The position numbers and the translations under genes were made by a program. This document shows, one piece after another, positions 4,890 to 57,059 of a DNA stretch of 64,000 bases. The DNA comes from Patescibacteria group bacterium (GTDB taxonomy: Bacteria; Bacteroidota; Ignavibacteria; Kapaibacteriales; Kapaibacteriaceae): positions 29,395-93,394 of the forward strand of contig JBIICY010000004.1 of assembly GCA_044238605.1 (NCBI GenBank), given 5' to 3'. How positions within the stretch are numbered: the first letter of the stretch is position 1; every line of letters starts with the position of its first letter. The notes under the pieces were generated by a model, which searched no databases, was not told where the DNA came from, and worked only from the letters and a program-made list of their open reading frames with translations.

Positions 4890-6209
4890 ATGAGCATGCC
4901 TGCTATGTCGTGGGGACGCTACCCACGCGCGCAACATACAAGAGAAGAATCACCAGAGTGGCGTCAGCAGCTTGTTCGGGCGATGTCCGGACATGATACA
5001 TTCCTTGCATTCGGACTCGGCAGATCATACGGAGACGTCTGCCTCAATGACGGTGCTGGGCTTGTCCGTATGCACAGATTCTCTCACATCCTGTCGTTCG
5101 ATACAACCACTGGTGTGCTTCGCGCTGAGGCCGGGTTATCTATAGCCGAGATGCTCTCGGTAATCATACCCGCAGGTTGGTTTACGCCTGTTACTCCGGG
5201 CACGAAATTCGTTACGCTAGGCGGCGCAGTGGCTAACGATGTTCATGGGAAGAATCATCATAAGGTAGGTACATTCGGCCGCCATGTGCGGGCGTTCGAG
5301 CTAATGCGGTCGGATGGAACGGTGATGGTCTGTTCACCAACACAGCACGTAGATCAATATCGGGCAACTATTGGTGGAATGGGGCTTACCGGAATCATCA
5401 CGTGGGTTGAACTACAGCTTACCCCGATTGCCTCTCGGATGGTCGAGGAACAGAGCATTAAAGCGCGATCCCTTCAGGAGGTGGTTGAGTTAACGGAAGA
5501 GGCCGATGCCGACTGGGACTATACCGTTAGTTGGATCGACGTGATGGCCTCAGGTAGCTCGTTAGGAAAGGGTATTCTGCTACGGGGCAGGTTCTCCGAC
5601 GCAGCTGATGGTTCACTTGCTTCGCCGCAAAGCTCCCAACTACTTCGAGTGCCATTTGATGCGCCTTCATGGGTGCTCAGCAGGCCCACGATCAAGGCCT
5701 TTAATACATTCTGGTATAACAAGCAGCTCGCACGAGAACACCGCCGGCATGTTGATCTTGAGCCATTCTTCTATCCGCTGGATGCCATAGGCAATTGGAA
5801 CCGGCTCTATGGAACACGTGGTATGCTCCAGTATCAATGCGTGGTGCCAATGCAAAACGGCGTTGCTACGATGAAGTCGATCATCGGTGAACTGCAGCGA
5901 GGCGCAGGAGCCTCGTTCTTGGCCGTTGTAAAGAAGTTTGGCTCTCATACGTCGCCCGGCTTAATGTCGTTTCCGCAGCCTGGATTGACGCTTACTTTAG
6001 ACATGCCGAATTCTGGTAGGCGGCTCTTCGCAGCTCTGGACCGCTGCGACGACATTGTTGCCTCGGTTGGCGGACGGGTCTATGCTGCAAAGGATGCTCG
6101 CATTCGTGGTGATCGCTTCATTAGCATGTATGAGAACTACTCTGAATTTGTCCAGTACATTGATCCTCGGTGCTCAAGCTCATTTTGGCGCCGCATTCAC
6201 AATAGCTAA
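4890..6209 (+). CDS. dprE1: FAD-dependent decaprenylphosphoryl-beta-D-ribose 2-oxidase-like protein (DprE1 homolog)
   Basis: Long collinear similarity to mycobacterial DprE1: GLGRSYGD, LPGTKFVTLGGAVANDVHGKNHH, IGGMGLTGIITWVELQLTP, QYQCVVP. The start is placed at ATG 4890, after the UbiA stop, rather than at 4833. Confidence 0.8.
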   Translation: MSMPAMSWGRYPRAQHTREESPEWRQQLVRAMSGHDTFLAFGLGRSYGDVCLNDGAGLVRMHRFSHILSFDTTTGVLRAEAGLSIAEMLSVIIPAGWFTPVTPGTKFVTLGGAVANDVHGKNHHKVGTFGRHVRAFELMRSDGTVMVCSPTQHVDQYRATIGGMGLTGIITWVELQLTPIASRMVEEQSIKARSLQEVVELTEEADADWDYTVSWIDVMASGSSLGKGILLRGRFSDAADGSLASPQSSQLLRVPFDAPSWVLSRPTIKAFNTFWYNKQLAREHRRHVDLEPFFYPLDAIGNWNRLYGTRGMLQYQCVVPMQNGVATMKSIIGELQRGAGASFLAVVKKFGSHTSPGLMSFPQPGLTLTLDMPNSGRRLFAALDRCDDIVASVGGRVYAAKDARIRGDRFISMYENYSEFVQYIDPRCSSSFWRRIHNS

Positions 6210-6223
6210 AGCGTAGGTTTTTT

Positions 6224-6964
6224 ATGTCTTCGAAGTCGATCGTCATCATTGGTGCAACGTCAGCAATTGCGCACGGCGTTGCAAAGCTCTACGCCAAGGA
6301 CAAGGCACGCTTTGCACTTGTGGCCCGCAGCGCACAAAACCTTGACGTTGTTGCGAATGATCTTCGCTCCCGAGGTGCATCGCATGCATCGACGTTTATC
6401 GCAGACCTGAAGGATATTGCGCGTCATGACGAGATCGTACGCTTTGCAATGTCAGATCTCGGTAGGGTAGACATCGTTATCCTCGCTCACGGCCTGCTGA
6501 AAGACCAGACAGAGATCGACAATGATGTTGACGCAACGCTCGAGATGTTTGAGGTGAACGCCACGAGTATGATATCTCTGGCTCATCGCTTTGGATGTGC
6601 ACTCGAGAAACAGGGAAGTGGCACGTTGGTTGGACTATCTTCAGTAGCTGGTGAACGTGGTCGCCGCGCACTCTATGCCTATGCCGCTGCAAAGTCTGCC
6701 GTTTCAGAGTTTCTCTCTGGAATGCGAGGACGCTACCTACCGCTCGGTATCAATGTGCTGACTGTAAAGCCTGGACCAGTTGATACGCCTATGACAGCCG
6801 GCCGAACCCTGCCGCTTATGGCCAGTGTTGACAAGGTCTCGCTCGATATCCGTAAGGCTATCGATACACGTAAGCATGTGCTCTACACACCAGGTATTTG
6901 GCGCGTTGTCATGGCCATCATGCGCTCTATCCCGGAAGGGATTTTCCAGCGCATGAAGATCTAA
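6224..6964 (+). CDS. dprE2: Short-chain dehydrogenase/reductase, DprE2-like 2-keto reductase partner of DprE1
   Basis: SDR fold with IIGATSAIAHGVA as the Rossmann motif, and YAAAK as the catalytic YxxxK. It is 246 aa, about the size of DprE2, and lies directly downstream of the DprE1 homolog. Confidence 0.65.
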   Translation: MSSKSIVIIGATSAIAHGVAKLYAKDKARFALVARSAQNLDVVANDLRSRGASHASTFIADLKDIARHDEIVRFAMSDLGRVDIVILAHGLLKDQTEIDNDVDATLEMFEVNATSMISLAHRFGCALEKQGSGTLVGLSSVAGERGRRALYAYAAAKSAVSEFLSGMRGRYLPLGINVLTVKPGPVDTPMTAGRTLPLMASVDKVSLDIRKAIDTRKHVLYTPGIWRVVMAIMRSIPEGIFQRMKI

Positions 6965-24868: not shown

Positions 24869-25462
24869 ATGAGCCAGATTGTTCTTCAAGCAGAATCGCG
24901 TGTTCCAGGACAGAGCATCGCAAAGAAGCTGCGCAGTGACGAACGCGTTCCAGGTGTGTTCTATGCAAACGGACAAACCCCAGTGCATTTCTCTGTAGCA
25001 TACCTTGCGTTGCGTCCGGTAGTCCATACACCGAAGGCAAAGACAGTGAACCTGGAAGTAGACGGCAAGCACATGCTCTGCATCCTCAAGGATGTAACGT
25101 TTGATCCTCTCACCGACAAGATCCTGCACGTAGACATGCTTGGCGTTAAGGCTGGTCAGAAGATCCAGATGAAGATTCCTCTCCACGTTAACGGCCTTGC
25201 TCAAGGCGTTCGCGAGGGTGGTACACTCGAGCATGTGCTTCACAAAGCAAATGTCAAGGTGGATCCTACCGAAATGCCGGAAGTGATTGAGATTGACGTC
25301 ACGAGCCTTGGTCGTGGTTCAGCAATCCACGTTTCAGACCTCAACGTCCCTGGCGTTGAGTTCCTCGATCGGCCAAGCGCTATTGTTGTTGCCTGCCACG
25401 CTCCAAAGGTTGTTGAGAAGGCAGAAACGACAGAGACAACGAAGAAGAAGGGTAAGAAGTAA
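24869..25462 (+). CDS. rplY: 50S ribosomal protein L25 / general stress protein Ctc
   Basis: N-terminus QAESRVPGQSIAKKLRSDERVPGVFYANG and the usual prs-rplY order. Confidence 0.85.
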   Translation: MSQIVLQAESRVPGQSIAKKLRSDERVPGVFYANGQTPVHFSVAYLALRPVVHTPKAKTVNLEVDGKHMLCILKDVTFDPLTDKILHVDMLGVKAGQKIQMKIPLHVNGLAQGVREGGTLEHVLHKANVKVDPTEMPEVIEIDVTSLGRGSAIHVSDLNVPGVEFLDRPSAIVVACHAPKVVEKAETTETTKKKGKK

Positions 25463-25475
25463 GAAGGGCACGAGG

Positions 25476-25537
25476 GTACTGAAGGTACTAGGGACTAGGT
25501 ACTAGGGACTAGGGACTAGGGACTAGGGACTAGGGAC
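25476..25537. repeat. Tandem heptamer array (ACTAGGG)n, about 7-8 units with two GTACTAGGG variants
   Basis: Read directly: gtactagggactaggtactagggactagggactagggactagggactagggac, immediately 3-prime of rplY. Confidence 0.8.
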
Positions 25538-25555
25538 GCAAGAGGAAATATATAG

Positions 25556-25588
25556 GCGCACGTATCGGAAACGGTACGTGCGTTTTTC
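25556..25588. terminator. Hairpin terminator between rplY and the convergent 25590 gene
   Basis: Stem GCGCACGTA / TACGTGCG(C) with loop TCGGAAACGG, then GTTTTT. Confidence 0.5.
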
Positions 25589-25589
25589 G

Positions 25590-26987
25590 TTAGAGAAGCT
25601 TGAGTGCTTCTGGTAGCAATGTGCGTTGTATCTCCTCTCGAAACTCAGTGTACAAGCGCTTCTGGGTTCGAATATCAGTGTGGCGCTCGATGTTCGTTAA
25701 CTGACGGTGCATCTTGAGTATCAGCTTTTTAAGGGGCTCGGCACCAGCGTCATCGCCGCCAGACTTCAATACAACAATCAGACGTTCAAATGCCTGTAGC
25801 GAGTTGAGGACGTCGTCCTGCTGCATCGCACGAATGATATCAACAACCCCGGAGTGAACGATAGATAACCCCCGTTGTTTCCTCCTACGCAGAACGGACT
25901 TAAGGAGCAGTTGATTGCCGGATAGTACGGCTACATAGCCAGCGGACTGAAGAATCACGCGCTGAATGTCTGCACGCTGCTTTCGAAATCGTTCGTGAGT
26001 AACGGCATCCGTAGCGATCTGTGCTGCAAGTTTATAATCTGCGCTGTGGAGCAAACGCCCCATGAGTTGATGCGTAACGAGAAACCAATTGGAACTGCCA
26101 ACACGGCTCAATTGTAGCAGTTTCTTTGTTGCTGCGGCAACTCGTGTGCGTTTTCCAAAAAACTGATGAATGATGATACTTTGAAGAATCCATGAGCTGT
26201 GATGTGAATCATCCCAAATCCCAATTTCTTTACACGCATCAGGGTATGCAGTAAGCCACGTTGTGGCAAGCTCATAATCATGCAGTATCTGGCTCGTTGT
26301 AACTGCCAGTGATAACCCCGCCGTAACAACGATAGGTTCTGTCTCCTTAACATTGATTCGACTCAAGATACTGGCGGCTTCGTTTGCTATTCGGACCTTA
26401 TGCTGCTGCCGCAGATTCTTTTTAACATTAGAGAGTATCAGCTTCCGTAAGACGGTATCAATTGCATTCAGCAGGTCGTGCGTTTTTTGGGCATCCTCAA
26501 GTTCTTCGCTGTAGCGATTGAAGTCGAGGGTGTTCGGCTCACTCGCGGCAATGGTTCTTAGCAGGCGGAGAGCATACAATTTTACATCGTACAAGTCTGG
26601 TAACACGATGTTGCGTATCGCAAGTTGAAGCTTGTGCTTTGCCAGCTGATGTGCCTGACTTCGGTACGCAATTCCAGCCGCGGCAACGAGTGAAAACACT
26701 TTGCGCGTTGAATCAATGCTCTTTCGCGCCGTAGACGATGGTTGAAAGGCTAGGATCATACCATCGAGCTTCTCGAGCAGTCTTGACTTTGCTTTTCGTG
26801 CAGAGTCCTCTCGCATACGAACATCCCGATCGTCAAGAAACTGGGGCCTTTGCCCTTCAATCACCTGCATAATGTAGCGTTGCTCTTCGTAGGTCAATGT
26901 GACTGCCAAGAGGTGCTGTAGATACAGACCATTGCCATAGAGCGACGTCAGGACGTCTGCATATTCCCGAAGCTTTTGATCGATCAT
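25590..26987 (-). CDS. Hypothetical all-alpha protein (cassette A large gene), distant paralog of 39378..40868
   Basis: 465 aa with no known motif. It shares the GSSNWFLxxxLMGRLL ... DYKLAAQI region and a THERFRKQRADIQRV-like stretch with the 39378 product at the same relative position, and has the same divergent arrangement with a small secreted-protein gene. Confidence 0.5.
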   Translation of the reverse strand: MIDQKLREYADVLTSLYGNGLYLQHLLAVTLTYEEQRYIMQVIEGQRPQFLDDRDVRMREDSARKAKSRLLEKLDGMILAFQPSSTARKSIDSTRKVFSLVAAAGIAYRSQAHQLAKHKLQLAIRNIVLPDLYDVKLYALRLLRTIAASEPNTLDFNRYSEELEDAQKTHDLLNAIDTVLRKLILSNVKKNLRQQHKVRIANEAASILSRINVKETEPIVVTAGLSLAVTTSQILHDYELATTWLTAYPDACKEIGIWDDSHHSSWILQSIIIHQFFGKRTRVAAATKKLLQLSRVGSSNWFLVTHQLMGRLLHSADYKLAAQIATDAVTHERFRKQRADIQRVILQSAGYVAVLSGNQLLLKSVLRRRKQRGLSIVHSGVVDIIRAMQQDDVLNSLQAFERLIVVLKSGGDDAGAEPLKKLILKMHRQLTNIERHTDIRTQKRLYTEFREEIQRTLLPEALKLL

Positions 26988-36445: not shown

Positions 36446-38215
36446 CTACGAAAGTGGACGTAGGTCCTTGAGACGAATCTGCGGAGTAGACGTTCCTTGG
36501 AAGATGTTTTCCTCCAAGGTGTAGACCATGGAGAAGTGTCTGCCGTGGCTGCATTCCGAGATCTTCTTCCCGAGATTGAATCCAATAGCGTCGATAGCAA
36601 AGTTTCGTTGCAAGGCGCGGAACTTCAAATGGTTGTTCCCAACAATTTTAACGCCGTTGGCAGAGGCAACATTGTCTGTGTGGAAAACCGGACGATGGTT
36701 CTGGTAACCGTACGGGGCGAACTTCCCTAAGAACTTTAAAAAGCTTGGAGTTAGTTCGTTCAGCTGTAAATCGGTATCAACCACTATTTCGTGTTCAAGC
36801 ATCTCTGGCGTAATGGCTGAGGATGCCATTGCATCGAATCTGCGCTGTAGTTCGGGGATGTTCTCTACAGGTAGCGACAGCCCAGCTGCGTGGATATGTC
36901 CGCCAAATTCTGTGAGCAGATCCTCACACTGTTTAAGTGCGCCGTGGATGTCGAAATCCTTGACGGATCTAGCAGAACCCTTTGCGATTCCATCGATTGT
37001 GGTAAGCATGATCGATGGCACATTGTAACGTTCTACAAGACGCGAAGCCACGATTCCGATTACACCGGCATGCCAGTTATCGCTATGCAATACCAGCGAC
37101 TTACCACTGCCAGTTGCGAGTTGCTTTTCGGCCTGAATAGCAGCCTCTTCAAAGGTGTGCTCATCGATTGCGCGTCGCTGACGGTTGTCGTGTTCAAGTT
37201 CCTGTGCGATGTGGAAGGCGCGGAGTTCATCCGGCTGGATCATCATCTCAACCGCACGGCGTGGGTCTCCGAGGCGTCCTGCCGCATTAATCCGAGGAGC
37301 TAACCCGAAGATTACACTGGAGTTAGTGAGCTGTCCAAGGTGCAAGCCGGCGCAATCAACAAGCCCCTTAAAGCCCGGACGCGGGTAGGAATTGAGAAGT
37401 TCCAAGCCAAAATGGCTTAACACACGGTTTTCGCCAGTTAAGGGGGCTATATCTGCTGCCGAGGCGATGGCCACAAAGTCGAGGTATTCGAAGGCCAGTT
37501 CGGGATGACCCTGACGTTCACTGAGGGCTTGGAGCAGTTTGAATGCTACACCGCAGGCGGCTAAGTCCTTGTAAGGATAGCTACATCCGGGTTTGATCGG
37601 GTCAAGCAGGGCTAGCGCCTTCGGGATCTCTTCAGCGGCCTGGTGGTGATCGCAGACGATCACATCTATACCCAGTTCGCGTGCATGGTCTACAGCTCTG
37701 GAAGCCGTAACCCCAACGTCTACCGTAACAATAACCTTGGCACCGGCCTGATGGGCGCGGTCTACAGATAGCGGGGTAAAGCCGAACCCCTCTTCGAGTC
37801 GGCTGGGGATATGATAGTCAGCATGAGCACCAATTCTGCGCAAGAAATGCAGAACCATCGCAGTGCTCGATGTGCCGTCCACATCGTAATCACCATGAAT
37901 CCATATCAGTTCTTTATTCTGAATGGACTCCTCTATACGGTCAACAGCTTGATCCATGCCGTCCATGAGCCATGGAGAGTGCAAGTGATCAAGCGACGGT
38001 TCAAAGAACCGCTGAACGTCTTCAACTGTGGATAGCCCCCTGCTCACCAATACGCGTGCGATCGGTGGGGGGACGTGAAGTTGTTGTATTATGGTTTGGA
38101 CAGCATGCTCATCGTGACAATCCCGGGTAATCCACCGGTAGTTCAAAATGTTCCTGTTAATTTGAAAACAAACTGTCCGAAGATACGAACCAACCCATCC
38201 TGTGGCAAAACGCAT
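36446..38215 (-). CDS. recJ: Single-stranded-DNA-specific exonuclease RecJ
   Basis: DHH motifs IWIHGDYDVDGTSS and VDHHQ, with a DHHA1 domain. Confidence 0.85.
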   Translation of the reverse strand: MRFATGWVGSYLRTVCFQINRNILNYRWITRDCHDEHAVQTIIQQLHVPPPIARVLVSRGLSTVEDVQRFFEPSLDHLHSPWLMDGMDQAVDRIEESIQNKELIWIHGDYDVDGTSSTAMVLHFLRRIGAHADYHIPSRLEEGFGFTPLSVDRAHQAGAKVIVTVDVGVTASRAVDHARELGIDVIVCDHHQAAEEIPKALALLDPIKPGCSYPYKDLAACGVAFKLLQALSERQGHPELAFEYLDFVAIASAADIAPLTGENRVLSHFGLELLNSYPRPGFKGLVDCAGLHLGQLTNSSVIFGLAPRINAAGRLGDPRRAVEMMIQPDELRAFHIAQELEHDNRQRRAIDEHTFEEAAIQAEKQLATGSGKSLVLHSDNWHAGVIGIVASRLVERYNVPSIMLTTIDGIAKGSARSVKDFDIHGALKQCEDLLTEFGGHIHAAGLSLPVENIPELQRRFDAMASSAITPEMLEHEIVVDTDLQLNELTPSFLKFLGKFAPYGYQNHRPVFHTDNVASANGVKIVGNNHLKFRALQRNFAIDAIGFNLGKKISECSHGRHFSMVYTLEENIFQGTSTPQIRLKDLRPLS

Positions 38216-39269
38216 ACACGACTACATAGCGGGGCAACCCGACCAAGACGACCACGAACTGGGGTACCGTGCGCGCACACGGGAGCGAGCCAAGCTGCTG
38301 GATAGAACGCGCACGCGGGTAAAGCAGGGCAACATCCCTGAGGGGGCTCTCCAGGGCACCGTGATGCGTCCGCTGGGTCCGCGCTGGATGGTTGCCACAC
38401 CTGGATCCGTGTGGGACTGTGCCGTTTCGGGCATCATCGACGTGCCACACACATCCAGCCTAGTAGCCGTTGGGGACACCGTCTGGATCATGCCCGATCA
38501 GCGGGCATCCGGAGCAGCCTCAATCGTCAAGGTTGAAGAACGCACCACGGTACTCTCGCGCAAAGCTGCCGGACGCGGCAAGAAGGAGCAGGTTTTGGTG
38601 TCCAACGCCGAGCAACTCTGCATCGTTGTGGCAGCAGCCCAGCCAGACTATAAAAAGCGGCTCATCGACCGGTATTTGATCGCTGCTGACAAAGGCGAGC
38701 TTGCGCCGATGATCGTGATCAACAAGATCGACCTCATTCCTGATGAGTATCGCGAGGACTTTGTTGATGACCTTCGGGTGTACTCCGAAGACCTTGGCAT
38801 CCCTGTGCTGTTCACAAGCACCACAACAGGGGAGGGCATCGAAGAACTTGAGCAGCACCTCTTGGCGCACACCTCACTGCTTGCCGGCCCATCAGGCGTT
38901 GGCAAATCCTCCATCATCAACCTGATCAGCAACATCCCTCAAGCAGTTGGGGAGATCTCCCGCAAATACGATAAGGGGCGTCATACCACCACCGCGGCTA
39001 TCGTTATTCCATTGCGCAACGGCGGCATCGCCATCGACACCCCCGGCATCCGCGAATTTGCCCTTTGGGAACTGGGAATAGACGAGCTCCCATTCTACTT
39101 CGAAGAGTTCGCCCCTTTTGCCGAACACTGCAAGTTCAATTCCTGCTCTCACACCCACGAACCCGGCTGCGCCGTAAAGCAAGCTGTGGAAGATGGCTTG
39201 GTGGATGAAGAACGATATGCTTCATACCTGCTGTTGAGCAGCGAGCAGCAAGCAGCGAGCAGCGAGTAG
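38202..39269 (+). CDS. rsgA: Ribosome small-subunit-dependent GTPase RsgA (YjeQ)
   Basis: LAGPSGVGKSSIINLI, DTPGIREF and the zinc knuckle CKFNSCSHTHEPGCAV. The C-terminal tail SSEQQAASSE* is encoded by the heptamer repeat array. The true start may be the downstream Met, because the track start overlaps the recJ start. Confidence 0.8.
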   Translation: MAKRIHDYIAGQPDQDDHELGYRARTRERAKLLDRTRTRVKQGNIPEGALQGTVMRPLGPRWMVATPGSVWDCAVSGIIDVPHTSSLVAVGDTVWIMPDQRASGAASIVKVEERTTVLSRKAAGRGKKEQVLVSNAEQLCIVVAAAQPDYKKRLIDRYLIAADKGELAPMIVINKIDLIPDEYREDFVDDLRVYSEDLGIPVLFTSTTTGEGIEELEQHLLAHTSLLAGPSGVGKSSIINLISNIPQAVGEISRKYDKGRHTTTAAIVIPLRNGGIAIDTPGIREFALWELGIDELPFYFEEFAPFAEHCKFNSCSHTHEPGCAVKQAVEDGLVDEERYASYLLLSSEQQAASSE

Positions 39270-39325
39270 CGAACAGCGAGTAGCGAACAGCGAGTAGCGA
39301 ACAGCGAGTAGCGAACAGCGAGTCC
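39237..39325. repeat. Tandem heptamer array AGCGARY (4 perfect 14-mers AGCGAGTAGCGAAC plus degenerate units)
   Basis: Read directly: agcagcgagcagcaagcagcgagcagcgagtagcgaacagcgagtagcgaac... It overlaps the last codons and the stop of rsgA. Confidence 0.8.
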
Positions 39326-39363
39326 TAGTAATAGATTTCGAATGATAAATGACGAACAACGAG

Positions 39364-39392
39364 TTACTCGCTGCTCGCTACTCGCTGTTCAC
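39364..39392. repeat. Inverted copy (4 units) of the AGCGARY heptamer repeat, forming a long imperfect hairpin with the 39237 array
   Basis: ttactcgctgctcgctactcgctgttcac is the reverse complement of the upstream array. It supplies the NSE-TAG terminus of the 39378 gene. Confidence 0.6.
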
Positions 39393-40868
39393 TAACAGCT
39401 TCCCGAGAATCTCGAATCGGACGATTTCACTGTCTGAAAAAGTGCTGGGCAATTCGCCAAGGCGCTTACGAAATGCGTTTAAGTCTGCTCTTGAAGGAGC
39501 TGTTGCTCGATGCTGATACAGAAATTCTATAAATACACCGAATCGGCTGTTATAGCGCATGTGCTTGCGACGCTGTATGAATCGCCACAGCGTAGTAAGT
39601 GTCTCATCATACTGAAGCTGACGGCACTGAGCAGTTGATTCAATCAACAACCATATATGCGATGCAATGAAGAAGTGCCGAGCAAGCGATCCTGCGCGTA
39701 TTTCTTCTAGCAAATCTCGGATAAACTGGTGAGGTCTGCCGCGACGTGGACCGTCCAGTTGCATAAGGGTCTCTAACGATATGCAGTAGGCTTCGGCAAG
39801 CCTCCGTCCGACCTTCAAATGTGTGTCATGTATAAGAGCATTGGGTGTTGATCGCGTTTCTTGTAAGATGCCAGCAGCAAGCTGTGCTTCCCCCTGCAGT
39901 AGAAGTGCTCTTACAGCAAGATCTGAGCAGAGAAACCAATTCCTTGTGCCTTGTGCAAACAAATCTCTTGCCCGCATAGCATAATCCGCTGCCTTGTATA
40001 AGTTGCAAAGCGCCATATGACAAATTGCTGTCTGCAGGACTGTCTCACGCTTCGGCAGAAGTGATTTGCGCAAGAAAACAATAAGTTCATCGTAGCGCTC
40101 GGTGACTTGCAGGGTTGTGCACGTGATGCGCGCGACAGACTCAACAAACCATGGCATCGAGCATTGGCCAAGTGCAAGATTGCATTCGTTATAGAGCTCG
40201 TTCCATTGTTGTCGCATTCGTTCTGATAGCACACTGCCCGTAAAAATTTGGGCATACAGAACATCATGATTTCCACGCAGTGTGGTTTCAAGATGGAGGG
40301 CATCATTCGTTGCTATGAGTTGAGTATGATATTTATGAGCATTATGTCTTTGACCGTGTAATGCAACATGAAGGAGCAATTGGCGCAGCCCGGCAACGCA
40401 AAAGCCTTGCCAGGCTGCTGGTATTGTCTCGTGATGTCGTAGCCCCTTTCGAAGATGAAATGATGCACCATCACCGATGTTGTGCTGGGACAAGTAAAGT
40501 CCGATGATGAGAGATCTAACAGCCGCGATTTGTTGCACAAGAAGAGGGTCATCAGAAAAACGTGAAGGGTCTAAGAAGAATACAAGATTCTCTAATCGAG
40601 CTATGGTTCTTTGCATCAACCGATTAAAAGCACCTACAGGCTGGATGTTGCCAGAACTGAGAGTCGATAGCCGGAGTCTCGCAGTTGCTGATGTCATTTC
40701 AGGGTCGAGCGCGAGTTTATATAACTGAAACGTCTTCGTTGCGGAGGATAAATTATCCTCATTAAACACCTCAATTGATTTAAATCGCATTTGCTGAATT
40801 GTTACTGCCAGCGCTTGTAAATACGTGAAGTTTGACATAATTATTGATAATAGTGATGTCGTTAACAT
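39378..40868 (-). CDS. Hypothetical all-alpha protein (cassette B large gene), distant paralog of 25590..26987
   Basis: 496 aa. It shares the GTRNWFLxxxLAVRALL ... EAQLAAGI segment with the 25590 product, and has the same divergent partner arrangement. Confidence 0.5.
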   Translation of the reverse strand: MLTTSLLSIIMSNFTYLQALAVTIQQMRFKSIEVFNEDNLSSATKTFQLYKLALDPEMTSATARLRLSTLSSGNIQPVGAFNRLMQRTIARLENLVFFLDPSRFSDDPLLVQQIAAVRSLIIGLYLSQHNIGDGASFHLRKGLRHHETIPAAWQGFCVAGLRQLLLHVALHGQRHNAHKYHTQLIATNDALHLETTLRGNHDVLYAQIFTGSVLSERMRQQWNELYNECNLALGQCSMPWFVESVARITCTTLQVTERYDELIVFLRKSLLPKRETVLQTAICHMALCNLYKAADYAMRARDLFAQGTRNWFLCSDLAVRALLLQGEAQLAAGILQETRSTPNALIHDTHLKVGRRLAEAYCISLETLMQLDGPRRGRPHQFIRDLLEEIRAGSLARHFFIASHIWLLIESTAQCRQLQYDETLTTLWRFIQRRKHMRYNSRFGVFIEFLYQHRATAPSRADLNAFRKRLGELPSTFSDSEIVRFEILGKLLVNSE

Positions 40869-41818: not shown

Positions 41819-44071
41819 ATGAAGCTGGCCCTACATTTACTCATCGCTACCTGCCTACTATTAGGCAGTGCTTCCGCTCAAGACTGGCAGCGTTATCCGG
41901 TGTTCCCGCCGGGGTATGCTCGAGTGTGTGCTACAGAGACACAAGCAAATGGAGAAGTAGTAGCTCTGGATATCTGTGGGCGCATCATCGATGCCAAGAC
42001 GGCGCGAGTAATCTCGTATCCCAATCGAGGCTCCTCGGTTGACAATGCGTTGCGGACGGAGTCTGGCTGGTTGATACGATATCTCGACGGATCGCTTTAC
42101 GTTGGTCAAACGTTAGCCGGCGATTTATCAAAGCGTCATGATAGCGTATTGCAGATCGTTCCAGATCGAAACGCGGGAGCCTATGTTGCCGCATCAAACG
42201 GTGATATCTATGCACTGACAAATGGCATGTTGACGAAGATCGGTTTGTGTTCCAAGGTAAAGACCATTGCTGGTGTGGATCAGAAACGGCTCTTTGCTCT
42301 TGATTCCGCAGGCCAGCTCTTTGATATGAGATTCCAGCAAGTTGGCTCTGAATGGAAGCTGCAGAAACTGCAATCATGCAATTCATACAGGGATATCAGC
42401 AAGTTTGTCTGTGTGATGATGAACGATTCATTGCTGGTTCGTAAAACGAATGATGCCTATAGCATCTACACCATGAGTAATGATTCACTCCATGCTGAAT
42501 TCAACATGCGCTCCATACCTGGGTTTGAACCTATCACCACCCTGAAACACGTAGGTGCTGTTGGTGCTATTGCCAGTAATACCGGTGTTGTGCTGTTCGA
42601 GATGGGAACGCGATTTGACGAGTGTCAGATCTATCCTGTAGCCTGTGCAGCATTGAGATTTAGCAGCAGAACATGGACGTTATATGCACGCGACCAGCTT
42701 GTTGATGGTCGTCTGACGTCGGCCGAGATTATCGCTGATACGCTCGTATACGGGACAACAAACGGGAGCATCACCCGCGTTGATCCGGCAGGCTACCGAA
42801 CGCTGGTTCGCAGACCAATGCGTGGCGACCTTGTTCGTTGGCTTGGATCGGTTCGTAATGGCAGCACGGTTGTATTCTATACCGAAACGGTAACCTGCGA
42901 TTCAAACAATCCAGCTGGGATACTGTTTGCGGTCTGGGACGCAAAAAATCGTGAGTGGGGGCGCGTTTTCGATGTAGTTGCTTCGCCCACGTGGCCGTAT
43001 AGTGATGGAAATGGCTTGCCGGGCTGTGATGTATCAAAAGCCAACAATAGAATTGTGTTTTCGCGGCTCAATGCGATCATGATTGTCGATTTGTCTACCG
43101 GCACCATCCTTCGTGAGACGCGGCTACCTGAGGCAGTAGTCAGTTTGCGATATCTTCAAAATCACTCGATCTTGGTGTCAGGTAGTACTCAGCGTTTTGT
43201 CGTTGATACCTTGTTAGTCGTTCGAGATCAAACAGTGTACACTGATTGTTCAATGCGGTATGTTGTCGGTTCGTCCATAGATCTCGACGGCAATTGTCTT
43301 CTCAATGTTGGCGCCAGCAACTATGCAGTTTATCACGCGGCATCTGGGAATTTGTCACGAATCATGAACGATTTGGGCTATTCTTCCGTGGAATGCGCAT
43401 TTCTCGGAAACCGGCCTGAGTTTCTGGTTGTTGGAGAACGTGACGGTAGAATAGAAGTACGAATGTTGAGTCGAAATGATGTGAATCTTGTGGGTTCGTT
43501 TTCCGCTGGCAACCCATCTCCAAATGTGACAGCACAAAGCGGAAAGCTGTCGGATGGTCCGGACTATGTTCGCCCATTTTGGGCGGCGCCCTCGTTTGTT
43601 ATCGTCCGTGGAAAGGAGCGCGACGTGCGTTATGTGCCTCCACCAAGGGGCTGGTTCCCACCAACGCCTACCCGAGACCGGTGGACGAACAGTGGTCTGC
43701 AACACCAGCTCGATGACAGCACGTATATGACCATCTTTTCACAGTCAGAGATGTGGGTTTACACGCTCCGTACGCAGGGAACGAGTGTTGCAGGTGAATC
43801 GCAATCACGTCAGCTCAGTGTCTATCCTAACCCGGCACATGACGTGGTCACGGTTTCGATAGATGCTACAATCACAGCCGGTGGCATGCCTTCAATGCTT
43901 CGACTGATCAATTCTCATGGTAGCATCATTGCACAACAAGAACTGCTCACGGATGGATCTACGTCGTTTCACACGCACAGTTTCTCACTTGCTTCGTTGC
44001 CCTCCGGCGTCTACTTCGTCGAGGTCATTGGATCTTCTACAACAACCATCCCCATTTCTGTGGTACGGTGA
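41819..44071 (+). CDS. Large secreted protein (probable beta-propeller/beta-rich) with a T9SS C-terminal sorting domain
   Basis: Signal peptide MKLALHLLIATCLLLGSASAQ. The C-terminus LSVYPNPAHDVVTVSID ... LPSGVYFVEVIGSSTTTIPISVVR is a classical T9SS CTD. Confidence 0.6.
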   Translation: MKLALHLLIATCLLLGSASAQDWQRYPVFPPGYARVCATETQANGEVVALDICGRIIDAKTARVISYPNRGSSVDNALRTESGWLIRYLDGSLYVGQTLAGDLSKRHDSVLQIVPDRNAGAYVAASNGDIYALTNGMLTKIGLCSKVKTIAGVDQKRLFALDSAGQLFDMRFQQVGSEWKLQKLQSCNSYRDISKFVCVMMNDSLLVRKTNDAYSIYTMSNDSLHAEFNMRSIPGFEPITTLKHVGAVGAIASNTGVVLFEMGTRFDECQIYPVACAALRFSSRTWTLYARDQLVDGRLTSAEIIADTLVYGTTNGSITRVDPAGYRTLVRRPMRGDLVRWLGSVRNGSTVVFYTETVTCDSNNPAGILFAVWDAKNREWGRVFDVVASPTWPYSDGNGLPGCDVSKANNRIVFSRLNAIMIVDLSTGTILRETRLPEAVVSLRYLQNHSILVSGSTQRFVVDTLLVVRDQTVYTDCSMRYVVGSSIDLDGNCLLNVGASNYAVYHAASGNLSRIMNDLGYSSVECAFLGNRPEFLVVGERDGRIEVRMLSRNDVNLVGSFSAGNPSPNVTAQSGKLSDGPDYVRPFWAAPSFVIVRGKERDVRYVPPPRGWFPPTPTRDRWTNSGLQHQLDDSTYMTIFSQSEMWVYTLRTQGTSVAGESQSRQLSVYPNPAHDVVTVSIDATITAGGMPSMLRLINSHGSIIAQQELLTDGSTSFHTHSFSLASLPSGVYFVEVIGSSTTTIPISVVR

Positions 44072-44127
44072 AGCTGTTCGCTGCTCGCTGTTCGCTACTC
44101 GCTGTTCGCTACTCGCTGTTCGCTACT
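44072..44127. repeat. Tandem heptamer array RYTCGCT (8 units), the reverse-complement orientation of the AGCGARY family
   Basis: agctgttcgctgctcgctgttcgctactcgctgttcgctactcgctgttcgctactc starts at the TGA of the T9SS cargo gene. Confidence 0.8.
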
Positions 44128-44165
44128 CTTTCTTATCTTCGCACGTCTCATCAATCACACACCAC

Positions 44166-53286: not shown

Positions 53287-54474
53287 TCAGCATTGGTTAA
53301 GGCTAGCCCAGAGTGCACAATGCACGCCCCATGCTTCAACAGTGTTAGCTACTACAGTGTGCCAGTAGTTTGCGGCAGGTTGTTCGCGGAGCCGCTGTGC
53401 GGAAAGCAGGATGTTCTTTTGCGTATGCTCCTGTGAGATAAACTCTTCAAGATGGGCATCATAGCCCTTCCACCGGAGGATATCACGCCGCATGGTGTCT
53501 GTCACGAGATCTCCTAGACGTTCTTTGGTGATACCGTCATCGAGAAGCGGACGCACCGATTCTGGTACGCGATCTTTATGAAGTTGTTTCTGGACGTAAT
53601 GATGACAGCAGGGGGCAATCAGCATCCGTTCGGCAGAAAGACGAAGACCCAACTCGATTGCCTGGTCTGTGGCTGTGTCGCATGCATGCAGCGCAATAAG
53701 CAGATCGCACGACGAAACACCCATGATGTCTAGGGCCGAGCGAATATCCGATACAACAAAGCTTGCATCTGTAAACCCCATCTCACGAGCAACATGCTCG
53801 CACTGCCTGATCACATGCTCGTTTGAATCAATTCCAATAAGCCGAACCTTGCGCCCCATTCGCTCCAGAACGTACATCAGCGATAGCGACAAGTAGGCCT
53901 TCCCACATCCAGCATCCACAATAACAAACTCGCTGCTCTCTGCTCTCTGCTCGCTGCTTGCTGCTCGCTGCTCGCTGCTCACTACTCGTGCAAGCAAGTG
54001 ATTGACCTGACGAAACTTATCGGCCATGGCAGTAAGGATCTGTCCATTTTCGGAAGCTAAGCCCATCAGATGCAGGAACCCGCAGTCTTCTGAAGGCGCC
54101 AGCAGGCGCTGTTTTACTCTGTCCGACGTTACCGATTCCCAGTGCGTGCGACTGGCTGCCGCATGCTTTACTGCTACCTCAACACGATCGTGCTTGAAAC
54201 TGCGCAGCACATGAACATCCTGGGATGGGGTCTGAACAAGAATTTGCCGAAATGAATCAGCAAGCAGTGCTGACAGCGCTTTGTCAAGGTTATCCACAGG
54301 TTCTTGCGAGGGGGCCGTGAACGACTGTTTGGCCGTAAACGACTCTACTCGCAGGCGCCATCGGCCGTCTTCTCGTTCTGCACGAACGACGGCTTTTGTC
54401 CATTGAGAGTTCTTGAGTGGACGCGAAAACGTGGCAACAAAGGCATCGGCCCCTGACAGCAGTTCAGTTAACAT
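53287..54474 (-). CDS. Class I SAM-dependent methyltransferase carrying an in-frame SSEQRA low-complexity insertion
   Basis: Motif I FVIVDAGCGKAYLSLSL, motif II LIGIDSN, post-II LLIALHACDTATD. Immediately before motif I comes ARVVSSEQRAASSEQRAESSE, encoded by the heptamer array. Confidence 0.65.
   Translation of the reverse strand: MLTELLSGADAFVATFSRPLKNSQWTKAVVRAEREDGRWRLRVESFTAKQSFTAPSQEPVDNLDKALSALLADSFRQILVQTPSQDVHVLRSFKHDRVEVAVKHAAASRTHWESVTSDRVKQRLLAPSEDCGFLHLMGLASENGQILTAMADKFRQVNHLLARVVSSEQRAASSEQRAESSEFVIVDAGCGKAYLSLSLMYVLERMGRKVRLIGIDSNEHVIRQCEHVAREMGFTDASFVVSDIRSALDIMGVSSCDLLIALHACDTATDQAIELGLRLSAERMLIAPCCHHYVQKQLHKDRVPESVRPLLDDGITKERLGDLVTDTMRRDILRWKGYDAHLEEFISQEHTQKNILLSAQRLREQPAANYWHTVVANTVEAWGVHCALWASLNQC
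53929..53991. repeat. Heptamer array CTCKCTG (7-9 units) inside the methyltransferase coding sequence
   Basis: ctcgctg ctctctg ctctctg ctcgctg cttgctg ctcgctg ctcgctg ctcacta ctcgtgc. It is the same family as the arrays at 39237 and 44072. Confidence 0.7.
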
Positions 54475-54533
54475 TCCACAAAACTACGCCCTTCGTACTT
54501 TTGTGGTTTCCTTTACGCCCCCTTACAGACTCA

Positions 54534-57059
54534 ATGACTTCACGCCAGATACGACAGACGTTTCTCGAGTTTTTCGAAGCTCGCCAACACCGCATCGTTC
54601 CCTCAGCTCCGGTTATCCCGCACGGAGATCCAACTCTGCTGTTTACCAATGCTGGTATGAATCAGTTCAAGGATGTCTTCCTTGGAACAGGCAAGCGCGA
54701 CTTTACCCGTGCAGCTGATACGCAAAAGTGTGTGCGCGTCTCTGGCAAACACAATGACCTGGAAGAAGTTGGGTACGACACATACCACCACACGTTTTTC
54801 GAAATGTTAGGCAACTGGAGCTTTGGAGATTACTTCAAGCAAGAGGCCATTGCATGGTCATGGGAACTGCTGACTGATGTCTACAAACTGCCGAAGAACA
54901 GACTTCATGCAACCGTCTATCGTACCGATGATGAGTCGTTCGAGATCTGGAAGAAGTATCTGCCCGTAGAACAGATCCATCGGTTCGATGAAAAAGATAA
55001 TTTCTGGGAAATGGGCGATACAGGTCCTTGCGGTCCGTGCACGGAGATCCATTTCGACAGAACACCAGACCGCACCGGCGGGCCCCTTGTGAACGCAGGT
55101 GTGCCAGAGGTGATCGAGATCTGGAACAACGTGTTTATCCAATACAACCGCAATGCAGACGGCTCCCTGAGTGATCTGCCTTCGAAGCACGTTGATACTG
55201 GTATGGGTTTTGAACGCCTTTGCGCGGTGATGCAGGGTAAGGATTCGAACTACGACACCGATGTCTTTCAGCCGATAATCGCCTACACAGAAGACTTGTG
55301 TGGACGTAGCTACCGCACTGAGCTTGAAAACCCGGATGGCGTTGCGATGCGCGTGATTGCTGATCACATTCGCACATTGTCGTTCGCCATCGCTGATGGT
55401 GCTATTCCAGGGAATGAAGGACGCGGCTATGTGCTTCGGCGCATTCTCCGCAGAGCTGCCCGCTATGCACGTAATCTTGGACTTACCGAACCCGTCTTGT
55501 GGAAGCACGTTCACATCCTGTGCGACACTATGGGCGATGTTTTTCCAGAGTTGCCCGAACGCCGGGAACTCATCGAAAAGATCATTCGCGCAGAGGAAGA
55601 GTCGTTCCTTGCCACGCTCGACCGTGGCCTACAGCGATTTGATCTGATCTCGACCTCAAGCACCGTCGTAAGTGGTGCTGATGCATTTGAACTCTACGAC
55701 ACGTTTGGTTTCCCACTAGACCTAACGCAGCTCATTGCCAGAGAGCGTGGACTCGAGGTAGACATAGACGGTTACAATACGTTGCTCGACGAGCAGCGGG
55801 CTCGTTCGCGTGCAGCTAGGAAGTCTGTTCTCCAGCAGGCATCAACCGAGTCTATCGATGCAATGTCACGTTTTACAGGGTATAACGGCACAGAGACTTC
55901 AGGAGAGGTTCTCTACGTTCAAGGCAATTCCATCGTGCTGGATCAAACACCGTTTTATGCTGAAATGGGCGGTCAGGTTTCCGATACAGGTATCATCACT
56001 GTAGGGGGCTCGCAGTACCGTGTGGAAGACGTGCGCAAAGTTGGTGATGCCATCGTGCACGTTTGTGAAACAGAGATCGACGCAGTTGTTGGTGATGTAG
56101 CAAAGGCAACGCTTGATGTTGCGCGCCGGCGTGATGTTGAAAGGGAACACTCGGTTACGCACCTGCTTCACGAGGCACTTCGCAGAGTGCTCGGTACACA
56201 CGTGCAGCAGTCGGGCTCACTTGTAGAGCCGGAGAGACTGCGGTTTGACTTTGCACACTTCGAGCGCATGCGAGACGATGAGATCGCTGCCGTAGAGGAA
56301 ATGGTGAACGAAAAAATCTTTGAGTCTATCGCTGTCCATACCGAAGAGATGACCATCGAAAAGGCACGTTCGGTGCCAGGTGCGAAAATGTTCTTTGGAG
56401 ATAAGTACGGTGATTCTGTACGGGTGGTGTTTATCGACGAGAACTTCTCTGTTGAGTTCTGCGGAGGAACCCATGTGCGCAACACGGCAGAGATTGGCCT
56501 ATTCAAGATTATCAGCGAATCGAGCGTAGCGAGCGGCGTGCGCCGTATTGAAGCCATTGCCGGACGCAGCATGCCGCTCTGGCTTAAGGAACAGCACCGC
56601 ACTGCAGACAACCTGCGCGACGATATCGCACGTCAGGCAGAGAAGATCCGTCAGCTCGAAAAAGAGCTCGCCTCATACAAGGTTGATGAGCTCAAGACGG
56701 TGATTCCCGACATGATTTCTTCTGCGCAGCACCTGGACGGATATCAACTGGCGGTGCGCCGCATTGATGGTGTTGAAATGGATCAGCTCAAGACCTTGGG
56801 CGATGAGCTCCGTTCGGCGCTCAAGACACAGGGTATCGGTCTGTTAGCATCGGTAGCCGACGATAAGGTACAGCTTGTCTGTGTTGTTACAGACGACCTC
56901 ACCAAGTCTAAACCAGCGGGCAAGATCGTTGGTGCAGTTGCAAAGGAGCTAGGCGGGGGCGGCGGAGGCAAGCCTCACATGGCTACGGCAGGGGGCAAGG
57001 ACATTCAACAGCTAGATGCCGTACTTTCGAACATTCCAACATTGGTTTCAACAATCTAA
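54534..57059 (+). CDS. alaS: Alanine--tRNA ligase
   Basis: MTSRQIRQTFLEFFEARQHRIVPSAPV ... FTNAGMNQFK, editing-domain HxxxH motifs, and a C-terminal DHHA1 GGGGGKPHMA. The internal Met is preferred because the track start overlaps the divergent methyltransferase gene. Confidence 0.9.
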   Translation: MTSRQIRQTFLEFFEARQHRIVPSAPVIPHGDPTLLFTNAGMNQFKDVFLGTGKRDFTRAADTQKCVRVSGKHNDLEEVGYDTYHHTFFEMLGNWSFGDYFKQEAIAWSWELLTDVYKLPKNRLHATVYRTDDESFEIWKKYLPVEQIHRFDEKDNFWEMGDTGPCGPCTEIHFDRTPDRTGGPLVNAGVPEVIEIWNNVFIQYNRNADGSLSDLPSKHVDTGMGFERLCAVMQGKDSNYDTDVFQPIIAYTEDLCGRSYRTELENPDGVAMRVIADHIRTLSFAIADGAIPGNEGRGYVLRRILRRAARYARNLGLTEPVLWKHVHILCDTMGDVFPELPERRELIEKIIRAEEESFLATLDRGLQRFDLISTSSTVVSGADAFELYDTFGFPLDLTQLIARERGLEVDIDGYNTLLDEQRARSRAARKSVLQQASTESIDAMSRFTGYNGTETSGEVLYVQGNSIVLDQTPFYAEMGGQVSDTGIITVGGSQYRVEDVRKVGDAIVHVCETEIDAVVGDVAKATLDVARRRDVEREHSVTHLLHEALRRVLGTHVQQSGSLVEPERLRFDFAHFERMRDDEIAAVEEMVNEKIFESIAVHTEEMTIEKARSVPGAKMFFGDKYGDSVRVVFIDENFSVEFCGGTHVRNTAEIGLFKIISESSVASGVRRIEAIAGRSMPLWLKEQHRTADNLRDDIARQAEKIRQLEKELASYKVDELKTVIPDMISSAQHLDGYQLAVRRIDGVEMDQLKTLGDELRSALKTQGIGLLASVADDKVQLVCVVTDDLTKSKPAGKIVGAVAKELGGGGGGKPHMATAGGKDIQQLDAVLSNIPTLVSTI

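Follow-up and report, generated by a model that had tools for sequence, protein, structure and literature searches.

An AGCGARY heptanucleotide array inside a methyltransferase gene of a Kapaibacteriaceae genome: in-frame length variation and related arrays at 3' gene ends

How can a gene accommodate a tandem repeat whose unit is seven nucleotides (nt) long? The question is raised by a stretch of 64,000 nt (contig JBIICY010000004.1 of assembly GCA_044238605.1, positions 29,395 to 93,394; hereafter the window), in which a degenerate heptamer, AGCGARY, is repeated within the open reading frame (ORF) of a class I S-adenosylmethionine (SAM)-dependent methyltransferase (53287..54474, minus strand, 395 amino acids (aa), Pfam Methyltransf_32), directly upstream of motif I. 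As the unit length is not a multiple of three and the array precedes motif I, a change of one or two units shifts the frame of motif I and of everything downstream, and an earlier note on this DNA had proposed a potential slipped-strand phase-variable locus. The comparison of strains and relatives points instead to a slippage-prone array that probably acts as a length-variable linker, kept in frame by purifying selection, and that forms part of a dispersed family of heptamer arrays at 3' gene ends.

The methyltransferase ORF matches PF13679 (Methyltransf_32) with 111 bits for a cut-off of 27, and its product is laid out as an N-terminal beta-rich domain, a long helix, the array and motif I (VIVDAGCGKA). 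In the alignment of relatives, residues D186, G188 and G190 of motif I are invariant or nearly so, as are the HACDTATD and APCCHH motifs, the conservation of which suggests a conserved, uncharacterised enzyme. Foldseek matched Rossmann-fold methyltransferases, fold and sequence searches together yielding generic class I methyltransferases only; as for the substrate, PDB sequence and fold searches and NCBIfam gave no identification.

The coding array itself lies at 53928..53983 on the minus strand and counts eight units, in order AGTGAGC, twice AGCGAGC, AGCAAGC, AGCGAGC, twice AGAGAGC and AGCGAGT. It encodes SSEQRAASSEQRAESSE, i.e. residues 166-182, and since ORF 53287..54474 translates through it into motif I (...NHLLARVVSSEQRAASSEQRAESSEFVIVDAGCGKAYL...; read across the array, ...NHLLARVV-SSEQRAA-SSEQRAE-SSE-FVIVDAGCGKAYL...), it is in frame immediately before motif I, as the earlier note had maintained. 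The coordinates given there, 53929-53991, point to the right site with an end coordinate that is too high (the array stops at about 53983-53988), and the AGCGARY consensus is exact in four of the eight units, the other four (AGTGAGC, AGCAAGC and AGAGAGC twice) being one base off. No TAG arises from the coding units: the array is built of C-ending units, whereas the T-ending, TAG-forming units that dominate the intergenic arrays described below are lacking.

A database search with the methyltransferase returned close relatives (84-100% identity) of 388, 395, 402, 409 and 416 aa, to which cluster members add a length of 430 aa. All protein lengths among the close relatives are separated by multiples of 7 aa, and in their alignment the sole length differences are whole SSEQRAx heptapeptides at the array site, present in one to seven copies. 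The contigs carrying each in-frame length number 11 (388 aa), 9 (395 aa), 1 (402 aa), 17 (409 aa), 7 (416 aa) and 10 (430 aa). A scan of metagenome contigs with the methyltransferase found one close relative only (L127). At the nucleotide level, five units are found in six loci (L164-169), eight in four sources (the window and L119-121), 11 in L127, 17 in L163 and 23, identically, in seven samples (L174-180); a single contig (L124) has 21 units and is out of frame. Because only three-unit changes preserve the frame, the natural in-frame alleles fall at 5, 8, 11, 14, 17 and 23 units, the unit number being equal to 2 modulo 3 in every one of them.

These alleles are built of 21-nt blocks, each opening with AGCGAGC. 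A block of two AGCGAGC units followed by AGCAAGC reads SEQRAAS, AGCGAGC followed by two AGAGAGC reads SEQRAES, and a block ending with AGTGAGC reads SEQRAVS. The carriers of 8, 17, 21 and 23 units are 98.7-99.8% identical to the window over 1,050 nt of flanking gene sequence, and more distant relatives have 5, 11 or 14 units. The comparison of unit number between strains, which the earlier note had suggested as a check, therefore reveals a difference (5, 8, 11, 14, 17, 21 and 23 units), and since 8 to 23 units occur in strains with flanks that are ~99% identical, array length evolves much faster than substitutions accumulate.

Concerning the age of the repeat, orthologues with and without the insert were also compared. 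The heptapeptide is present at 84-100% identity and again in a second clade at 64-67% identity, which carries NSEQRAA at the same site (one to three copies and longer) and likewise changes in 7-aa steps (386/393/407 and 388/402/409 aa), while in Kapabacteria-type relatives of 53% identity or less the place of the repeat is taken by a short linker of unrelated sequence. Being shared at the same site down to ~64% protein identity and absent at ~53%, the repeat is old there, and the idea that it invades the coding sequence does not hold in the sense of a recent invasion of this genome. Two relatives at about 60-65% identity are also of note. In P0036, the heptapeptide repeat is immediately followed by ~39 additional aa (LNRYSRDLFRHSRESGNPVLAPRFRGGDIQHRGGDDSRE), and in P0115, the sequence becomes unrelated after six copies of the repeat. 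Further insertions may be favoured at the array site, unless the two contigs are chimeras.

The 395-aa and 416-aa alleles were modelled with AlphaFold on a 107-sequence alignment, with a mean predicted local distance difference test (pLDDT) score of 90.8 and 89.8, respectively. In the model of the 395-aa window allele, helix 147-172 enters the first heptapeptide and is followed by a lower-confidence coil (173-181) and by beta-1 (182-187). In that of the 416-aa allele, the helix spans 148-185, a loop at 188-198 has a pLDDT below 50 and precedes a short helix, and the remaining fold is unchanged. The array is the lowest-confidence region of both models, the rest of the fold standing at a pLDDT of ~90. 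It is thus predicted to form a surface helix-loop excursion that grows with unit number, which is consistent with tolerance of length change; whole in-frame peptide-repeat steps in a segment predicted to be structurally permissive are also what characterises coding variable-number tandem repeats (VNTRs).

Frame is kept almost throughout, with at least 55 contigs carrying full-length in-frame alleles vs. one contig out of frame. The latter (L124; ENA ERZ27272096, k141_911137) has an array that is obtained from the 23-unit allele by removing AGCAAGC AGCGAGC and making one substitution, and gene calling splits its methyltransferase into two ORFs (221 and 196 aa). With two units fewer than the 23-unit allele, it illustrates the expectation of the earlier note that the gain or loss of a number of units that is not a multiple of three breaks the gene, and a deletion in clean 7-nt register is what slippage predicts. 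L124 is a MEGAHIT contig, and its allele could be an assembly artefact or a chimera.

Other truncated homologues were considered as frameshift alleles and discarded. The 196-aa protein starting with MYVLERMG and others come from contigs that end at the array (L125, L126 and L170), L123 begins 1 nt before it, and L122 (2724-2823) and L171 (1394-1492) have scaffold N-gaps within it, so that, of the truncated gene calls inspected, only L124 is a real internal frameshift. In short-read assemblies, heptamer arrays are very often the exact point at which a contig or scaffold breaks or contains a run of N (with ends in L125, L126, L155, L170 and L172), and these breaks result in truncated gene calls that mimic frameshifts.

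The unit is also found outside the methyltransferase gene. Tandem Repeats Finder detected period-7 arrays at 39236-39322 (12.4 copies, also with a 14-nt super-period AGCGAGT+AGCGAAC), 39367-39387, 44073-44128 and 53929-53988 (8.6 copies, 86% matches), and a unit scan gave 12 units at 39240-39323 on the plus strand and, on the minus strand, 4 units at 39366-39393, 7 at 44076-44124 and 8 at 53928-53983. The two-unit pattern AGCGARYAGCGARY has 18 matches in the window, for 0.02 expected from dinucleotide-preserving shuffles. The AGCGARY unit is therefore repeated at four separate sites within 64 kb, far above chance, and the arrays are a real dispersed heptamer family. Three of the four overlap or abut stop codons. 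Apart from small points of coordinates and unit purity, what the earlier note had observed is thereby confirmed: one degenerate heptamer forms four arrays, and the family is a dispersed simple-sequence one at 3' gene ends, supplying the tail and stop of two genes and abutting a third.

The first of these genes is rsgA (38202..39269, plus strand), coding for the ribosome small-subunit GTPase A, whose last ten codons come from the 12-unit array (39240..39323, plus strand). Its translation bears out the predicted contribution of the array: the RsgA tail SSEQQAASSE and the TAG at 39267-39269 (C-terminus ...SYLLLSSEQQAASSE-TAG, also written ...LLLSSEQQAASSE-TAG) both derive from its first units, and the rest, i.e. 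four times AGCGAGT AGCGAAC followed by AGCGAGT, is 3' untranslated. AGCGAGT and AGCGAAC alternate in the intergenic arrays, with a TAG at each AGT-AGC junction, and as 14 modulo 3 is 2, the junction TAGs (39267, 39281 and 39295) leave none of the three frames open. RsgA orthologues at 84-98% identity end with SSEQQAASSE, SSEQRTASSE or SSEQRAANSESQ, array-encoded in close relatives only, vs. an unrelated tail of similar length (...SYLNLRAETSDE) in more distant orthologues, which indicates that the array replaced the tail and supplied the stop.

Convergent with rsgA is an ORF of 496 aa without a family match (39378..40868, minus strand). Its product ends with ...LLVNSE-TAG in the inverted four-unit array (39366..39393, minus strand), which encodes NSE and the TAG stop at 39380-39378, the second stop that the earlier note had attributed to the family. 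This array is also the 3' hairpin arm for 39240-39323: the inverted 12-unit and 4-unit arrays (39240-39393) are predicted to fold as a hairpin between the convergent genes, with -74 kcal/mol and z = -6. Of the features of an intrinsic terminator, the stem-loop at 39240-39393 is strong, but the long hairpin has no U-tract behind it. A small local hairpin (39352..39378, minus strand), in which degenerate plus-orientation units (GACGAAC AACGAGT) pair with the inverted array, has a T-rich tail; read on the minus strand (39378-39352), downstream of ORF 39378..40868, it is terminator-like. Look-ups of the RsgA and ORF 39378..40868 proteins of the window led to contigs ending within arrays.

The third gene codes for a type IX secretion system (T9SS) cargo protein with a Por_Secre_tail domain (41819..44071, plus strand). 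As expected from the earlier note, its TGA (44069-44071) abuts an array, here one of eight units (44073..44128, minus strand; four 14-nt super-periods) that starts 2 nt past it, at 44073, and reads as AGCGARY on the minus strand, with a tRNA-Ser gene following after 38 nt. No structure is predicted for single arrays, including this one; the intergenic copies may nevertheless serve as hairpins or terminators.

As for length, the array at 44073 is the same in seven strain contigs (L156-L162), with one A/G difference in two of them, and these seven include contigs with the 17-unit (L159 = L163) and 23-unit (L156 = L174) methyltransferase alleles. The rsgA arrays are identical in one strain of 98% RsgA identity (L173).

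From these observations, a mechanism may be proposed. Units ending with T create a TAG at every unit junction; because 7 is not a multiple of 3, such TAGs fall in all three frames, and an array can thereby replace a short C-terminal tail and supply the stop, while inverted array pairs can form hairpins between convergent genes. In the methyltransferase gene, a stop-free array of C-ending units separates the N-terminal domain from beta-1 (motif I), one SSEQRAx being encoded by three units. Its length changes rapidly, presumably by replication slippage or unequal exchange; only multiples of three units keep motif I in frame, purifying selection would leave the 388-430-aa ladder, and rare out-of-frame slips would yield null alleles. 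A length-variable linker of this kind, within a dispersed 3'-gene-end family, is the explanation that we consider probable, slippage being the presumed mechanism and linker length presumably neutral.

Several points weigh against it. The purer intergenic arrays show no length change (seven contigs for 44073 and one for the rsgA arrays), whereas simple slippage alone predicts that they vary at least as much as the coding one; copy-number differences between related genomes are found for the coding array (5-23 units) and not for the intergenic ones in the contigs compared. The sample is small; the difference may reflect selection acting on the length of the linker, an exchange of 21-nt blocks, or a functional constraint to which the intergenic copies are subject. 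The alleles come, moreover, all from short-read metagenome assemblies, in which the array interrupts many contigs and scaffolds. The in-frame count therefore favours alleles that were assembled and called as one gene, long or out-of-frame ones being perhaps under-sampled. Finally, the neutrality of linker length is an assumption.

Classical phase variation of the methyltransferase is possible, and the polymorphism itself lends it some weight. In a true contingency locus, one- or two-unit slips would reversibly switch the enzyme OFF and ON in populations, as in Haemophilus and Neisseria. The 7-nt unit, with an array upstream of all catalytic motifs, makes any out-of-frame allele a null one, unit number is highly polymorphic among ~99% identical strains, the clean two-unit deletion of L124 splits the gene, and heptanucleotide repeats, found at hmw1A and hmw2A, can mediate phase variation in H. 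influenzae, one of them lying inside the hmw1A ORF with a frameshift in strain PittAA (PMC2651432). The 23-unit allele is nevertheless unchanged in seven samples, the units are imperfect and arranged in 21-nt blocks, the array lies mid-protein and not near the N-terminus, and L124, as a MEGAHIT contig, could be a chimera. In known contingency genes, OFF states are frequent. Here, only about one contig in 56 is out of frame, the other apparent fragments being contig ends or scaffold gaps, and ON and OFF unit numbers are not both common (at least 55 in frame vs. one out). As OFF states are rare, the population feature that defines contingency loci is lacking. Taken as a whole, a contingency locus is unlikely.

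The gene neighbourhood also argues against such a switch, as it consists of alaS and an M61 peptidase gene, with no restriction or surface-structure genes. On one side, alaS is transcribed divergently from the methyltransferase gene; on the other, the methyltransferase stop overlaps the beginning of the M61 glycyl-aminopeptidase-like gene (53287-57059 for the whole in the window). Both neighbours are kept in all close relatives (L119-L121, L163-L169 and L174-L180); in a relative at 88% identity, the methyltransferase stop lies ~30 nt upstream of the M61 gene instead of overlapping it. An apparent extra array within the M61 peptidase gene of L164-L169 turned out to be a chance near-match in conserved coding sequence.

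Quite unlikely as well is a selected functional spacer, in which an SSEQRAx helix would set the distance or geometry of the N-terminal beta-domain with respect to the catalytic domain, the lengths being adaptive and under diversifying selection. It would account for a coding array that varies while non-coding arrays of the same family remain constant in the same strains, for the retention of the repeat at this site across the clade down to 64% identity, and for an SSEQRAx/NSEQRAx peptide that is kept through synonymous unit variants (e.g. CGA vs. AGA for Arg); the predicted helix is also longer with more units. On the other hand, a short linker of another sequence suffices in relatives of 53% identity or less, the prediction for the distal part of the array is a low-confidence disordered loop, and the eight sequences of cluster P0012 show no length variation. 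Combining both ideas, the array could be a tuning and switching device, with three-unit steps adjusting a helical spacer, and hence activity or target choice, and one- or two-unit slips turning the enzyme off. Such a device, which seems very doubtful, would account for the much greater variability of the coding array with respect to the purer non-coding ones.

That the length differences are short-read assembly artefacts of a tandem repeat is highly improbable: although contigs and scaffolds often end or hold N runs at the array, and 17-23 units (119-161 nt) come near the read length, errors would ignore the frame, yet at least 55 of the 56 contigs keep it, the heterogeneity of the units is sufficient for unambiguous assembly, and the 23-unit allele is identical in seven independent samples, the 5-unit one recurring in six loci and the 8-unit one in four sources.

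The distribution of the heptamer was also analysed beyond this lineage. A scan for (AGCGARY)3 over 185,579 species genomes gave at least 118 stretches from many phyla, so that the element is not genome-specific, contrary to what the earlier note had supposed. The matches listed include Mesorhizobium, Nitratireductor, Vibrio, Acinetobacter, Gemmatimonadales, Bacteroidia, a Kapaibacterium and an Ignavibacteria metagenome-assembled genome; among them, the commonest units are AGCGAAT (333) and AGCGAGT (192), and in 31 of 118 loci two arrays face each other as an inverted pair less than 150 nt apart, 24 times as 5'-AGCGARY...loop...RYTCGCT-3' and 7 times in the opposite arrangement, with loops of 4-140 nt (e.g. 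L031:4896-4997 and 6183-6284, L072:2922-3054). Several arrays directly follow a stop codon and precede a terminator hairpin (L021:7632-7736, L009:6560-6643). Two Mesorhizobium copies have a conserved loop in common, which suggests a dispersed element. No Rfam family matches the window arrays or the 12 foreign loci examined. From the classification of these arrays by ORF context, only the unit-type counts are used; the classes themselves are unreliable, given how common stop-to-stop ORFs are in GC-rich DNA and on the strand without stops.

At the protein level, a database search with (SSEQRAA)x8 gave no more than two above-threshold hits. Of the proteins P0301 and P0302, one is a fragment of a Xanthomonas hortorum type ISP restriction-modification protein that starts with (SEQRAAS)x5, and the other a JGI fragment annotated as RnfC with the tail ...EQRAASSEQRTANSEQRTANSEQRTANSEQRTAIDL. 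The AGCGARY heptamer thus enters other coding sequences.

Heptameric simple repeats are over-represented in many bacterial genomes (PMC4692102). The GGGAATC heptamers of Xanthomonas and GGGGA(T/C)T of Nostoc are enriched in their genomes and lie mostly within 50 bp of stop codons, some overlapping them and some forming inverted pairs (Rehm et al. 2015, PMC4692102), and inverted pairs of GGGAATC-type heptamers are able to make stem-loops (PMC4692102). The cyanobacterial STRR heptanucleotides of Calothrix PCC 7601, to which that paper also refers, are of the same kind. The AGCGARY arrays resemble the GGGAATC/GGGGAYT repeats in their genomic enrichment, their position near or over stops and their occasional inverted pairs; those repeats, however, are G-rich, form quadruplexes and prefer four units, whereas AGCGARY has no G-tracts, its single arrays have no predicted structure, and its intergenic copies were constant in length in the strains compared.

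The TAACTGA repeats of Beggiatoaceae, Cyanobacteria and some Bacteroidetes have, in one orientation, stops in all three frames and overlap the upstream stop (MacGregor 2015, PMC4679880); in the stop-free orientation, they give heptapeptide repeats inside ORFs, mainly at protein ends (PMC4679880). AGCGARY is likewise a dispersed tandem 7-nt repeat, mostly intergenic, with stops in one orientation and read-through in the other. The unit is unlike, the AGCGARY arrays lie at 3' ends whereas TAACTGA lies just upstream of start codons, and the AGCGARY coding copy is inserted between two domains of a conserved enzyme instead of at the protein periphery, its polymorphism in unit number among strains being documented here. 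Simple repeats are in general suppressed mid-protein (PMC3315296).

With the contingency genes of Haemophilus and Neisseria, the present locus has in common a repeat that is not a multiple of three, lies inside an ORF, varies between strains and causes frameshifts upon unit change. It differs from them in that OFF is rare (~1/56) and that imperfect units form a 21-nt super-structure; moreover, its bacterial host lives free in fresh water, and the gene belongs neither to the surface nor to the restriction-modification class. As for coding VNTRs and length-polymorphic linkers, the likeness resides in the whole-peptide steps of 7 aa, in a low-confidence permissive segment with the rest conserved, and the difference in the origin of the 21-nt period, made here of a 7-nt unit that also occurs in non-coding arrays of the genome, so that 7- or 14-nt slips are possible and would be removed by selection. 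The present case fits a known kind of heptamer repeat, within which it stands out by its lineage, by its unit, by a location inside a conserved enzyme, between two of its domains, and by the three-unit allele ladder.

The locus offers a natural example of a 7-nt repeat inside an essential part of a gene: as 7 and 3 are coprime, the heptapeptide is identical in all three frames, and selection would reduce a fast mutational process to three-unit steps, seen as the 388-430-aa ladder among ~99% identical strains. It extends the little-studied heptameric families to the Kapabacteria/Ignavibacteria lineage, in which the same family shapes C-terminal tails and stops. From a practical point of view, the arrays break metagenome assemblies and split gene calls, and the coding one would be usable as a high-resolution strain marker for this lake lineage. 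Should the changes of length or frame prove functional, a bacterium that is not a host-associated pathogen would be shown to have phase or rheostat variation.

A second heptamer family, AGGGACT, which contains TAG and is unrelated to AGCGARY, is present in 7.9 copies at 25483..25537 on the plus strand. This array begins 21 nt past the stop of ORF 24869..25462, between convergent genes, and a GC-rich hairpin with a T run (about 25549-25590) lies 3' of it. More than one heptamer repeat family is therefore found at 3' gene ends in this genome. A short GTAAGAA repeat in two copies also lies right at the stop codon of ORF 24869..25462 (25452-25466). Lastly, positions 1359-1623 of the window hold a 12-nt tandem repeat with a 48-nt super-period (GTCACGACCACC, x22), unrelated to the heptamer family; its reverse complement would encode GGRD, and the ORF calls around it are ambiguous.

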